Part shown: in pieces, positions 45,660 to 52,532 of the stretch | How the letters are laid out: every line of letters begins with the position of its first letter | How positions within the stretch are numbered: the first letter of the stretch is position 1 | DNA from: an uncultured delta proteobacterium | GTDB taxonomy: Bacteria > Myxococcota_A > Polyangia > Haliangiales > Haliangiaceae | NCBI GenBank assembly: GCA_963848295.1 | Contig: CAWKDB010000011.1 | Coordinates: forward strand, 448,001 to 512,000 | Length of the DNA stretch: 64,000 nucleotides | Reading direction: 5' to 3' | Translations under genes and position numbers: made by a program | The notes under the pieces: generated by a model | The model's input: only the letters and a program-made list of their open reading frames with translations | Database searches by the model: none | Told to the model about the DNA's origin: nothing

Positions 45660-47801
45660 TCAGAACCGATACGCGATGCGCAGGAAGCCGTTGAGCCCGG
45701 TGATCGGCGGATCCGACGTCAGCGTCGTCGCGCCGGTCAGCATGGAGGCCGCCGAGTCGAGCGTCGTACGCGACAGGTAGAGCGTCGCGATCCCGAGCCA
45801 ATCGCGGTTGAACCGGTAGTAGACCGTCCCGCCGATCGTGATGACCGACGCGTTCGACACGCCGTAGCAGTCGACGACGGCGAGGCAGCCGGTGTTCGCG
45901 GTCGGCGACACCGGATCGATCGTGGCGGTCGTGTTGTTCGTGTCCTTGCTCGTCGAGTACTCGGCGTCGGCCTCCCACTCGCCTTTGCCGTTCGCGAGCT
46001 CGCGGCCCGCGTACAGCCGCGCCGCGAAGATGTCGGCGCGCTGGTAGGCAGTGTCGTCGCCGCCGCCGAACGCGAACGAGTCGAGCACGTCGGCGCCGAG
46101 GCGCAGGTCGGCGACCGAGCGGCGATCGGTGATCGCGGCGTAGAGCTCGATGCTCGATCCGGGCGGGATCTTCGCGCTCTCCGTCGTTCCGTCGGGCGAG
46201 TACAGCGTGAACGGCTGGCGCTCGCGGTACGTCGCCGCGACGGTGACCTCGAAACGCTGGAGGCTGCCGAGCCCGGCCGAGATGCTGCCGCGCGCCTCGT
46301 TCGACGCGAGCCTGCTGACGAAGATCTGGTTCTGGACGAGCGTCGTGTTCGAGCTCGGCTGGTTGAAGAACGCGTTCGCCTGCACGTTGAGTGTCTCGGT
46401 GTCGTAGCGGTTGTAGCTGCCGGTCAACCGCAGCTGCGGGTTCGGCTTGTAGTTGAGGCCGAGCGATAGGTTCGTGACGTTGAGCCCCGCGGACCCGATC
46501 AGATCGAGCACCGCGAAGTGATAGAAGTCGAGCTTGCTGCCGTAGCGCCAGTAGCCCTGCGCCGTGCCGAAGATGCGCGGGCCCTCTCCTTCGATCGGGA
46601 CCTCCGCGACGCCGCCGAACGAACCGTACGAGGACTCCGTGCGGTACGCGGCGCCGAACCCGCCGGCGGTCACGAGCTTGCCGACCGGGTCCAGCGACTG
46701 CGACGTGACGTTGTAGTCCTTGCGCAGATCGACGTAGTCGGTCGTGAGCGAGCGACTGCCGCGGACCGGGAACAAGCCGGCGAAGCCGAGCAGCGTGAAC
46801 CGCTGCGAGCTCGCGTAGTCGACGCGGATGCCGTCGATCTTCACCGCGCCGAGGTCGGCGATGAACTGGCGGCCGAGGAACAGGTCGGTGCGATCGCCGT
46901 TGCGCGCGACCCACAGCTCGCGCAGGTCGTATTCGTTCTCGCCGGTCAGCCCGGACTGGATGTGGTTCGGCACCGAGATCGTGCTCGTGTTGGCCGGCAC
47001 GTCGGTGTTGTCGGTGTCACCGGGATTGGCGACCAATCGGATCCGGCCGTCGACGCGCGCATCCCACGCGCCGCCGCTGATATGGCGAAAGTCGGTCTGC
47101 AGCCGGAGGTCGGTCCACAGCTCGGGGAAGCTCGACCCGTCGCTGCCGAGCGTGCTCGGTGGAGCGCCCATCCCGGTCGGGTACTGCCCGCTCGACTCGA
47201 AATAGAACAGTGACGTCGACGTCAGCGAGCCTTGAATCAGCGTCCCGTTCCTCGTCTTGTCGTCGTCGCGCTTGTCGACGAAGAACCGATCCTGCTCGAA
47301 CGCGTTCGTCTTCTTCGTGCTGCCCATGTCATGGCCGCTGAGGTCCTGCTTCTGCAGCGGTTGCTCGCCCGAGCCGCCGCCGCTGCCGCTATCGCTATCG
47401 CTCCCCCCGCCGCCGCCGCTGTCGTCGTCGCTTCCGGCTCCGACCGCATCCGCGCCGGTGACCTTCTTGCCGCCGAACTTCGACGTGTCGTTGCCGTCGT
47501 CGCTCTCGTCGTCGGCGGGCTTGGCCTTCGCTTTGGCCTTCGGCTTGTCGTCGTCGCTGTCGTCGTCGTCGTCGTCATCGCTCGGCTTGGCCTTCGCCTT
47601 CGCCTTTGCCTTGGCTTTCGCTTTGCTGTCCTTGGCGGCCTTGTCCTTGGCCTTCGGCTTGGCCTTCGGGGCGTCGTCGCTGTTGTCGTCGTCATCGTCG
47701 TCGCTGGCGGCGGAGGCGCCCTTTTTGTCCTTGCCCTTCGCGAAGCCGGCGTGCGGCCACGTCGCGGCGAGCACGAGCGCGAGCGCGAGGTAGCGCCTCA
47801 C
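45660..47801 (-). CDS. Putative outer-membrane beta-barrel protein with N-terminal charged low-complexity region
   Basis: Signal peptide VRRYLALALVLAATWPHAGFA; alternating-pattern beta strands (YDLRELWV, LFLGRQF, IDGIRVDY); C-terminal FLRIAYRF beta-signal. GTGA-coupled to the cytochrome gene. Confidence 0.75.
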   Translation of the reverse strand: MRRYLALALVLAATWPHAGFAKGKDKKGASAASDDDDDDNSDDAPKAKPKAKDKAAKDSKAKAKAKAKAKAKPSDDDDDDDSDDDKPKAKAKAKPADDESDDGNDTSKFGGKKVTGADAVGAGSDDDSGGGGGSDSDSGSGGGSGEQPLQKQDLSGHDMGSTKKTNAFEQDRFFVDKRDDDKTRNGTLIQGSLTSTSLFYFESSGQYPTGMGAPPSTLGSDGSSFPELWTDLRLQTDFRHISGGAWDARVDGRIRLVANPGDTDNTDVPANTSTISVPNHIQSGLTGENEYDLRELWVARNGDRTDLFLGRQFIADLGAVKIDGIRVDYASSQRFTLLGFAGLFPVRGSRSLTTDYVDLRKDYNVTSQSLDPVGKLVTAGGFGAAYRTESSYGSFGGVAEVPIEGEGPRIFGTAQGYWRYGSKLDFYHFAVLDLIGSAGLNVTNLSLGLNYKPNPQLRLTGSYNRYDTETLNVQANAFFNQPSSNTTLVQNQIFVSRLASNEARGSISAGLGSLQRFEVTVAATYRERQPFTLYSPDGTTESAKIPPGSSIELYAAITDRRSVADLRLGADVLDSFAFGGGDDTAYQRADIFAARLYAGRELANGKGEWEADAEYSTSKDTNNTTATIDPVSPTANTGCLAVVDCYGVSNASVITIGGTVYYRFNRDWLGIATLYLSRTTLDSAASMLTGATTLTSDPPITGLNGFLRIAYRF

Positions 47802-50307: not shown

Positions 50308-52532
50308 TTACCAGGCACGCGACCACGCATCCCAGATGTGGGCGACCGCAAACGCCGTCAGAAACACCGTGAACGGCACGTGGACCTTCTTCCACGAGTG
50401 CAGCAGCAGCTGAGCCTTCGGCGCGACGACCTGCTTGCGCGCGATCACGATCATCCGCGCCGGCGCGGCGAGCGATGTCGCGCGCGGGTCTTGCGATCCA
50501 TCGCCGTTACGCGCGAGCCGACCGCGGCGCGCCAACGTCCGCGCGAACCGGCCGATGTCCTGCGAGATCAGCCAGCCAGAGCGCCCGCGTGACGCTGCGG
50601 CGACTGCGCGACCCGCTGCGCATTCGCGCGTTGCTCGGTCAGCTCGCGATCGACGCTCGGCCATCGGGCCGGGGTACTTCGCGCGCGCGGCCTGGAACGC
50701 GCGTTCGTGATCGAGCTCCTCGAGCTCGACCCCGCTCGAGAGCGACGGCACGAGCGTGTACAGGTAGCGGCCGAGGAACCCCGAGATGACGACGATCACC
50801 ATGCTCCAGAACGCCGCCGACACCCAGGTGTCGAGCTTCAGCACGGAGTGGAGCGCGACGAACATCGGGCCGACGATGCCGGCCATCAAGTGGAAGTCGA
50901 ACCACATCGTGTTCGACGCGAGCCAGCGGAACAGCTTGATCCGTCGGAAGATCGGGTAGACCGCGGCGATCACCATCAGCCCGGTGCCGATCAGGCCGCA
51001 CCACACCGAGAGCGAATCGCCCGCGTTGAAGCTGACGTGCTCGTCCGCGATCGCCTTCGGGTCGACGCCGATGTACTCCGGCAGCTTCGACAGCCGGCTG
51101 AACTGGTATGACATCGTCGGCTTGTACAGCCGCAACATCGCCTCGGCGAACACGACCGCGAACGCGAGCAAGCTGACGACCCACATGACGAGCGGCGCGT
51201 AGCGGCCGCGCTTCATCTTCGCGAGGCCGCCGGAGCGGATGTCGAGCGCCCTCGGTGAACGGCATCACCGGCAGCACTTCGCTGCGCTCGCGCTTGGTCA
51301 GATCGTGATCGAAGCCGGTGCTTGCGCGAGCATCGCCATCGCGGGCGAGCGCTCGCGGAACAGGTCGTACGCGTCGATCTCGATCAGCGAGCCGGTCGGG
51401 CACGCCGACACGCACGCTTGATCGCCGTACGCGATGCAGTGATCGCACTTGTTCGCGATCCGCCGCGCGCGCGCGATCCGTCCGGTGCCCGGGCCGAACG
51501 CGAGCGCGTTCTTCTTGTCGAGCCGGTGCTTGAAGCCCTTCATGAACGTCGGCGCTTCGTTCTCGATCTCGACCATGTCGATCGCGCCGTACGGGCAGCT
51601 CTGCGCGCACGCGGTGCAGCCGGTGCACGTCGCTTCGTTGATGACGACTTCCTTCTTCGCCTCGTCGTACTTGATCGAGTCGTACGCGCATGGATCGATG
51701 CAGCGCTGATCGGTGCACGTCCGGCACGTGTAGATGAAGTCCAGCATGCCGAGCTGGTAGCCGCCGAGCGTGAGCCGGCGCGCGCCGTAGCGCTCCTCGC
51801 ACGCCTCCTCGCACAGCTTGCAGTCGATGCACAGGCCGAGCTGACGCACGCGGACCATCTCGCCCGAGACGCTGATGCCCTGGCGGACGAAGAAGTCGAG
51901 CAGCTCTTGCTTGACGCCGGACACCCACGCGAGCCGTTCGCGCGCGACGCCGAGCGACCGGCGCAGCCGGGCCTCGAACACCGGGTGGCGCACCGCGAGC
52001 TCGGCGATCCAGCGCTGGTCGAGCGCGAGCAGCACCGACGGCGCCGCGGTGTAGAACGCGATCGGCTGGCCGCGCGCCGCCGACAGCGCGCCCGGCGTTG
52101 AACAGGTCGCACTCGATGAACAGCGCGACGTTCTTGAGCGCGATGCGCGCGAGCGGCGGCGGCTTGATCAGCGACTCTTCTTCGAGCTCGTCCTTGCTCG
52201 CCGCTTCGTGCGCGACCTGCTGCGCGCGGCGCTCCGCGAGCTCGCCTTCCATGAACACGGCCGCGGCGATCTGACCCTCGCGATGTAGATGACCGGCGCG
52301 GCGCCCGGCGAGCCGATCGGCTCGAGCGACGAACATGTCGCGCTCGACCTGGCGGCTTCGAGATCCCCCCTGGTTCATCGCAGGCCCAGATCAGCTCGTC
52401 GTTCGGCACGCCCTCGAACAACGGCAGCCGACGGATCAGCCCGTAGTCAGCCTCGAGACCAGGCGGTGGTACCATCGCGCCGCCCCCGCCGGGACCGGCA
52501 GAAGCGCTGTGCTGGATGGCCAAGTTCGACAT
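50308..52532 (-). CDS. Fusion: cNMP-binding-like domain + four-cluster [4Fe-4S] ferredoxin (DmsB/NrfC-like) + di-heme b-type membrane domain; multiple apparent frameshifts
   Basis: IRRLPLFEGVPNDEL..YIARGQI (CNB-like); CIDCKLCEEAC, CRTCTDQRCIDPC, CTGCTACAQSCP, CDHC..CVSACP. The linker GFDHDL..MPFTEG|LDIRSGGLAKMKRG joins it to a TM domain with FHLMAGIVGPMFVALHS and VHVPFTVFLTAFAVAHI. Confidence 0.8.

Follow-up and report, generated by a model that had tools for sequence, protein, structure and literature searches.

The locus

The 64,000-nucleotide window analysed here (positions 448,001 to 512,000, forward strand, of contig CAWKDB010000011.1 in assembly GCA_963848295.1, from an uncultured member of the Haliangiaceae) carries on its minus strand three tightly coupled genes, for an inner-membrane iron-sulphur (Fe-S) protein, a 30-heme c-type cytochrome and an outer-membrane beta-barrel. 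This trio very probably encodes a wire that conducts electrons across the cell envelope in one direction or the other. Its feed, direction and acceptor we infer, and we think it probable that electrons pass from NAD(P)H to a flavoprotein encoded elsewhere in the genome, then through four Fe-S clusters, two b-hemes and 30 c-hemes to the surface. An earlier note on this DNA had proposed a complete cytoplasm-to-surface conduit in a myxobacterium-like host. The host agrees with the record titles of relatives, and the conduit finds support in the barrel model, the predicted complex, the di-heme layout and the synteny described below; the word complete has to be dropped, as the trio is without a catalytic electron-entry subunit. 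This gap had gone unnoticed, together with a domain of gene 1 resembling those that bind cyclic nucleotide monophosphates (cNMP) and a membrane signature shared with the conduits known as PCC3 and PCC4. The coupling itself is as the note described it, with 10 bp between genes 1 and 2 and a GTGA overlap between genes 2 and 3. The features of the operon are as follows.

50308..52532, minus strand: gene 1 (ATG at 52532, TAA at 50310-50308), about 730 residues in relatives, 12 frameshifts in the window
51950..52490 (approximate), minus strand: domain of cNMP-binding homology in gene 1, placed by fold and profile matches, its pocket Gly-Glu and Arg replaced
51400..51831, minus strand: four Cys groups of gene 1, a DmsB/HydN-like tetra-[4Fe-4S] module, Fer4 families above cut-off
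50311..51216, minus strand: inner-membrane domain of gene 1, with WX3HX13H on helices 3 and 5 and SGXXG on helix 4
50892/50850 and 50382/50340, minus strand: putative di-heme His codons of gene 1, in the two WX3HX13H motifs
47798..50297, minus strand: gene 2, 30-heme c-type cytochrome (ATG at 50297, TGA at 47800-47798), 5-8 frameshifts
47801..48286, minus strand: C-terminal six-heme segment of the cytochrome, predicted to lie within the barrel (interface residues 106-267 of a 267-residue piece)
45660..47801, minus strand: gene 3, outer-membrane beta-barrel (GTG at 47801, TGA at 45662-45660), 713 residues, frame intact
47352..47738, minus strand: low-complexity D/K/A/G-rich stretch of the barrel protein, between signal peptide and barrel, excluded from the model

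A fused iron-sulphur and membrane protein

Gene 1 joins, in this order, a degenerate cNMP-binding-like domain, a module for four [4Fe-4S] clusters and a five-helix membrane domain of di-heme-b type. Its model, folded for an intact orthologue (L021, 730 residues) from a 66-row alignment, has a mean predicted local distance difference test (pLDDT) of 64. Residues ~15-200 of this orthologue match cNMP-binding domains in fold comparison (Z 11.8, root-mean-square deviation (rmsd) 3.6, 140 residues aligned), and Foldseek finds CRP/FNR matches for the N-terminal domain (E 6e-4). One distant homologue of gene 1 is above the PF00027 cut-off, gene 1 itself scores 33.2 bits with PF13247, also above cut-off, and when its alignment is compared by HHalign with stand-alone proteins that combine these two families, the match has a probability of 99.7 and spans the cNMP domain and all four Fe-S groups. 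The canonical phosphate-binding cassette of CRP-type proteins is Gly-Glu...Arg. The corresponding columns of gene 1 hold Asn (66 of 66 rows), mostly Ser, and a hydrophobic residue, so that nucleotide sensing is doubtful; functional gating by cNMP is thus unlikely, and the domain probably has a structural role, or acts as a sensor for some other ligand.

The four Cys groups and two H-X13-H pairs that the note had read in a single protein turn out to be invariant: in each of the 66 orthologues aligned, all 16 Cys and all four His are kept. All 66 rows likewise contain two WX3HX13H motifs and SGXXG, within a domain of five hydrophobic helices. These helices and the positive-inside pattern of charges would place His539 and His707 (L021 numbering) at the cytoplasmic face of the membrane and His553 and His721 at the periplasmic face. 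In fold, the membrane domain is similar to superoxide oxidase, a cytochrome b561 that reduces quinone (Z 9.1, rmsd 3.8, 131 aligned, which is middling for a helical bundle). Searches of Pfam, NCBIfam and PDB by sequence returned no whole-protein family for gene 1 or gene 2.

This likeness to cytochrome b561 favours a model in which the membrane protein would exchange electrons with quinone, as proposed for such proteins in PMC5566968. We consider it unlikely: the four clusters are covalently fused to the membrane domain, with their 16 Cys invariant, the His pairs would sit on opposite membrane faces, in keeping with straight transfer, and relatives of the gene 1 modules keep an NAD(P)H flavoprotein alongside. 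The cytoplasmic feed is therefore retained as the probable one.

The cytochrome and its barrel

The second gene was described by the note as a cytochrome of ~830 residues with ~30 hemes; the heme count was right and the length somewhat too large, relatives having about 800-820 residues (815, or 27 residues per heme). In the window, 25 CxxCH and three CX3-5CH motifs are intact, spread over three frames, and two more must have been broken by frameshifts, since orthologues have 30. As a control for chance, the 2.5-kb cytochrome span contains 25 CxxCH and the remaining 61.5 kb of the window, read in six frames, contain eight. An alignment of 65 rows at 90% coverage or more, from which one near-duplicate was removed, has 30 motifs in 65 of 65 cytochromes, the second Cys and the His of every motif being kept. 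It further contains one extra conserved Cys pair and 31 additional conserved His, enough for bis-His ligation of 30 hemes. The protein has a Sec-type signal peptide, is built of tri-heme repeats and matches PF14522 and PF14537; three cytochrome c assembly proteins are encoded in the genome. Its N-terminal module matches (30.8 bits) short cytochromes encoded after related membrane proteins in clusters that lack a porin, of the type listed in Supplementary Table 6 of PMC5566968, which suggests that the N-terminus faces the inner membrane.

The third protein, which the note had taken for a secreted beta-rich product, does model as a transmembrane barrel: AlphaFold2 gives 22 long strands (pLDDT 82.5, predicted template modelling score 0.79), with no plug domain in the modelled part, and the translation ends in ...AYRF. 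The low-complexity D/K/A-rich stretch after the signal peptide, ~130 residues long, is variable among relatives and shorter in L021. The best fold matches are large outer-membrane barrels (Z 15-17), MtrB coming at Z 13.4 (rmsd 5.9, 407 aligned). A TonB-dependent receptor was considered and rejected: the top fold matches are such barrels, but only ~37 residues precede strand 1, and low complexity precedes these. By sequence the barrel domain has no match in Pfam, NCBIfam or PDB; no named PCC3 sequence figured among the matches to the operon, and 20 distant matches of the barrel were without useful organism names. Its family comprises 262 clusters at 50% identity with no named match, and the ESM Atlas matches are 'hypothetical' clusters only, from Myxococcota, Acidobacteriota and Gemmatimonadota.

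The check suggested by the note, to fold the barrel with the end of the cytochrome, was carried out on the window barrel and the C-terminal 267 residues of the window cytochrome, with no hemes, and gave a complex score of 0.73, against 0.00 for the best control. This mark is reached by 116 of 157 solved pairs and two of 215 mismatched ones, rates that apply here only roughly, own alignments having been used. The runs share at least 63% of contacts, with a partner pLDDT of at least 66. By our mapping 18 of the 22 strands take part in the predicted contacts, together with the six heme motifs nearest the C-terminus, so that these six hemes are predicted to lie within the barrel, a result that speaks for binding short of proving it; in the model the 29th motif touches long barrel loops, on the side that would be the outside.

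These loops also lend themselves to another explanation, that of a large electron store, or a supply of reductant for periplasmic or outer-membrane enzymes, in which the barrel would be an anchor and the loops would cover the last hemes. The absence of an extracellular cytochrome from the main operon fits this idea, as do the contacts of the loops with the outermost hemes, and a capacitor role has been suggested for PCC3 in PMC10734462. We nevertheless hold it improbable, as a paralogous cluster with a homologous barrel adds behind it a 31-motif cytochrome of lipoprotein type, which fits export to the surface.

Frameshifts

Frameshift-aware alignment of gene 1 and of the cytochrome, each with three intact orthologues, counts 12 shifts in the former and 5-8 in the latter, depending on the reference used (17-20 in total); the note had spoken of frameshifts, from which the barrel gene is free. 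Their number, and an intact paralogous cluster in the same genome, would suit a decaying pseudo-operon. Yet nearly all shifts are insertions of one or two bases, while identity to orthologues remains at 70-79%, and near-identical contigs from run X1 (0-4 substitutions per piece) lack the indels at 48638, 48735-48751, 51248 and 52303-52377. As X1 may be the source sample, this comparison points to assembly error, not to independent conservation. Moreover, five of the nine genes with a testable orthologue on the window's contig are split over frames (the operon's own two and three of seven others), against none of four, a small sample, on other contigs. Decay is thus very improbable, and the frameshifts are most likely assembly errors.

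Distribution among relatives

A scan with the membrane domain retrieved 78 loci, with record titles that are mostly Kofleriaceae, Haliangiales or Myxococcales. The synteny survey that the note had suggested speaks for a fixed unit: gene 1 is a single open reading frame (ORF) in 71 of the 72 loci with enough upstream DNA, and is followed by cytochrome and barrel in all 62 with enough DNA downstream. Gene 1 is near-core in the family, whose records come from soil, fresh water and sludge: of the 91 genomes with a completeness of 90% or more, 87 have it, as do 16 of 16 genera. It also occurs in five of seven genomes from other families of the order. These tallies include G010 and G358, unpublished and both positive, on which alone no statement here rests. 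In a draw of 300 genomes from the phylum, seven have full-length orthologues and 14 distant homologues, and three of six distant loci keep the order of gene 1, a cytochrome of 30-31 hemes and a protein of 450-520 residues with a terminal Phe.

The cultured Haliangium ochraceum DSM 14365, an obligate aerobe that breaks down bacteria and yeasts (PMC3035250), has an orthologue, Hoch_5160 (WP_045119382.1), and is known here from gene 1 alone; the strict pattern matched only one of its two WX3HX13H motifs. None of the genomes of the order covered here has a protein identical to Hoch_5160, and the trio is present in two whose proteins are 76-77% identical to it. A search of sequencing runs listed none of RNA that holds the operon.

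No extracellular multiheme cytochrome lies beside the window operon, and only seven of the 78 loci have another multiheme ORF behind the barrel gene; in L055, L070, L089, L024, L042 and L043 this place is taken by a second 30-heme copy or by a cytochrome of 18, 25 or 7 motifs.

The surroundings of the operon may be described briefly. Divergent from gene 1 is a probable frameshifted gene (window ~52660-53290, plus strand), beyond which 53305-54056 holds tRNA-Pro(CGG) and, broken by frameshifts, the gene of a response regulator with an XRE-type helix-turn-helix. Such a regulator is found near gene 1 also in the distant relatives L101, L102, L103, L106 and L125, and rpe, rsmB-like, fmt and priA-like genes lie beyond it. 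Convergent with the barrel gene (36721-45656, plus strand) are genes labelled by eye as MoxR-type AAA ATPase, DUF58-like and von Willebrand A, at least one of which is broken by frameshifts.

A candidate electron source

As the trio lacks a subunit for electron entry, two loci elsewhere in the genome (G000) deserve attention.

G000:C10 ~3682.2-3684.6 kb (L114:8229-10640): stand-alone Fe-S/FAD flavoprotein, membrane-anchored, 2x[4Fe-4S]/FAD
G000:C10 ~433.8-447.6 kb (L099:1315-15149): intact paralogous cluster, flavoprotein then gene-1 paralogue on one strand

The stand-alone flavoprotein has an N-terminal hydrophobic anchor, two Fer4 motifs and a Pyr_redox_3 domain with no disulfide CxxC, and is 59% identical to the copy in the paralogous cluster. 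It ends in a low-complexity Pro/Ala-rich tail of 330 residues, and is 76-85% identical across the genus. On its other strand the paralogous cluster encodes an SH3-containing barrel-like protein, a 30-heme cytochrome, a barrel 32% identical and homologous to that of the window, and a TIGR01904 cytochrome of 31 motifs whose start resembles a lipobox. This is a fuller, self-contained version of the system, found in a minority of family genomes; at seven of eight further paralogue loci the flavoprotein is directly upstream and an extra large cytochrome follows the barrel. The cluster also includes a small cytochrome-like protein, and a DsbD/CcdA-like gene is adjacent. Further multiheme clusters of the same genome, at C10 4198082-4205567 and 3650052-3651680 and at C2 778616-782924 and 271599-272553, hold 40+23, 21, 14+16 and 13 CxxCH, respectively, some adjoining barrel-like genes.

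Membrane domains of this kind number two in the genome, and so do the flavoproteins. The flavoprotein group is represented in 89 of 91 family genomes. Among 16 relatives from outside the genus, the same seven have both the barrel and a flavoprotein, and the seven genomes of the phylum draw in which gene 1 is full-length are also those with close orthologues of the flavoprotein. Homologues of the cNMP/Fe-S module that stand alone have this flavoprotein domain, fused to an 8-9-heme cytochrome, nearby at 23 of 29 loci of at least 8 kb (26 of 68 over all loci). These associations make the unlinked Fe-S/FAD NAD(P)H flavoprotein the likely electron source of the trio. A metagenome contig (L180:8301-12697) shows what is apparently an independent fusion of the same modules, an 818-residue cNMP/Fe-S protein with two aromatic-X3-H-X13-H motifs, encoded ahead of a fusion of an 8-heme cytochrome with a flavoprotein.

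Relation to known conduits

The note had not recognised this combination as a characterised system. Its parts and its concept were already in print: PCC3 and PCC4 conduits have appeared since 2017 as bioinformatic predictions (PMC5566968, PMC10734462), PCC3 being still experimentally unproven according to bioRxiv 10.1101/2025.02.27.639646, and the ptdABCDEFG clusters, of predicted function, pair the same modules (bioRxiv 10.1101/2023.11.21.568154). What stands of the claim is the fused three-gene form, no description of which, or of its presence in the family, was found in the literature consulted, outside which the Ptd Table S7 and boreal-lake cluster tables could list myxobacterial members. 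The part of the PMC5566968 supplement text covered, outside which lies Supplementary Figure 4 with the PCC4 domain architectures, holds no myxobacterial name. An abundance of multiheme clusters without assignment has been noted in Myxococcota (bioRxiv 10.1101/2022.03.26.485925). Nor is a cytoplasmic feed an entirely novel idea, as ferredoxin-NADP reductase genes were noted near seven of 11 decaheme porin clusters (PMC13264449).

Comparison with PCC3, made by described features, finds in gene 1 the signature defined in PMC5566968, namely five helices, two WX3HX13H and SGXXG. The long, repeat-built periplasmic cytochrome with 27 residues per heme (26-27 in PCC3 examples) and the adjacent barrel, with 22 strands predicted as for Leptothrix cholodnii PCC3, complete the likeness. 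Unlike the stand-alone PCC3 gene of ~300 residues, however, the membrane protein is here fused to cNMP-like and 4x[4Fe-4S] modules; the hemes are 30 instead of the 21-27 of PCC3 periplasmic cytochromes (PMC10734462); the main operon lacks the extracellular cytochrome that the paralogous cluster has; and the host belongs to the Myxococcota. The trio is not counted as a member of PCC3, because it has neither an extracellular cytochrome nor a stand-alone membrane gene.

With PCC4 subgroup II and Ptd it shares a protein of cNMP and 4Fe-4S (PF13247) domains placed directly upstream of a membrane protein that resembles ferric reductases (PtdE and PtdF), a porin, an FAD/NAD(P) oxidoreductase (PtdC in Ptd) and the lack of an extracellular cytochrome, and on the evidence of its sequence gene 1 is the PtdE plus PtdF architecture in fused form. 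A possibly fused Fe-S/IMP gene has been noted within this group in Oceanospirillum beijerinckii. The differences are a fixed fusion, whose only cNMP domain is degenerate, one chain of 30 hemes in place of 4-, 5- and 10-heme proteins, and an oxidoreductase that is unlinked in the genome and adjacent only in the paralogous cluster. Membership is not claimed here either, for want of the 4/5/10-heme set and of a linked oxidoreductase.

Emticicia oligotrophica carries on plasmid pEMTOL02 (NC_018749.1, EMTOL_RS21085-21110), known from annotation only, an operon with a homologous membrane protein (85 bits), an Fe-S flavoprotein (200 bits), repeat cytochromes of 23 and 40 hemes and ccsA. Unlike the trio, it has no cNMP/4Fe-4S module and two cytochromes. 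Profile comparison of the barrel with its 538-residue protein gives a probability of 0.4%. This complete related operon with its own ccsA (L127:8198-20782), on the plasmid of a cultured member of the Bacteroidota, is a possible ready-made test system.

MtrA has 10 hemes and MtrB 26 strands, the pair being fed by quinol through CymA. As in Shewanella MtrAB (PDB 6R2Q), a multiheme cytochrome would lie inside an outer-membrane barrel, by prediction in our case. Unlike MtrAB, PioAB and MtoAB, the trio has no decaheme DmsE-type or MtrB/PioB family match in Pfam and NCBIfam, and no sequence match to MtrAB. Taken together, and as far as features read from sequence allow, the trio is a new arrangement of conduits of the PCC3/PCC4 (Ptd) type.

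A possible mechanism

We may now describe how the wire would work. The flavoprotein, with a thioredoxin-reductase fold devoid of its disulfide centre, would oxidise NAD(P)H and reduce the four clusters of gene 1. Hemes at His539/His707 and then at His553/His721, whose motifs are present and whose cofactors and topology are deduced, would carry the electrons over the inner membrane to the N-terminus of the cytochrome, presumed to dock there, from which ~24 probably bis-His-ligated hemes, each with its observed motif, would cross the periplasm. The last six, predicted within the 22-strand barrel, would bring the outermost to the long loops, so that electrons would exit at the surface with no need of an additional extracellular cytochrome. 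Candidates for the acceptor are soluble Fe(III) chelates, humic quinones and O2.

Several points weigh against this account. The functions of all parts are predicted, from sequence and models; the Fe-S part of the gene 1 model is poor (pLDDT 30-50); and the complex was folded without hemes, in a prediction that the solved MtrAB analogue may have guided. The quinone exchange proposed in PMC5566968 counts here as well. The flavoprotein is within 10 kb of a window-type operon at none of 78 loci, so that its pairing with the trio rests on co-occurrence among kin and on the synteny of the paralogue, and kin genomes are not independent in such counts. Two trio genomes of the same order, among the seven relatives, have only a 37% identical flavoprotein homologue, only four of the 14 genomes with distant gene 1 have the flavoprotein at E<=1e-55, and 62 other genomes of the draw carry distant flavoproteins. 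Finally, no cytochrome was seen at three of the six distant gene-1 loci (one of them a 4-kb contig), and in the same-class genome L121 gene 1 has no adjacent cytochrome or barrel.

The direction of flow might also be the opposite, with external reductants (prey or partner cells, Fe(II) or reduced humics) as donors and NAD(P)+ or ferredoxin as the cytoplasmic acceptor; this we find decidedly unlikely. Reduction of NAD(P)+ by Fe(II) is uphill, and the trio encodes no energy-coupling subunit. In culture, gene 1 is known only from a chemoorganotroph that is strictly aerobic. In favour of uptake, PCC3 is described and expressed in Fe(II) oxidisers (PMC5566968; bioRxiv 10.1101/2025.02.27.639646), and porin-cytochrome wires can be reversible (PMC10734462). 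Outward flow from NAD(P)H is the direction that we hold probable.

What the wire may be for

The trio bears on two questions left open for PCC3 and PCC4/Ptd, their electron source and their direction, and reduces the wire to three chains and one flavoprotein, with a controlled structural prediction of the contact between barrel and cytochrome. It is set apart by a fusion that is fixed, a heme number constant at 30, a flavoprotein encoded elsewhere, and near-core presence in a family with a cultured strict aerobe among its members. A conduit fed from the cytoplasm would, if true, differ from the quinol-fed routes of Mtr and Geobacter. As the cultured H. ochraceum DSM 14365 has gene 1, the system can be tested at the bench, and the question is raised of the role of a 30-heme envelope wire in a strict aerobe. 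We may, tentatively and as a speculation, see in it a family-wide, near-core and quinone-independent wire from NAD(P)H to the surface that would serve surface redox chemistry and not respiration, for example reductive capture of iron, or superoxide and Fenton radicals directed against prey or polymers. If this were true, the wire would be a trans-envelope analogue of NOX and ferric reductases, including in a strict aerobe that lives by decomposing other cells.

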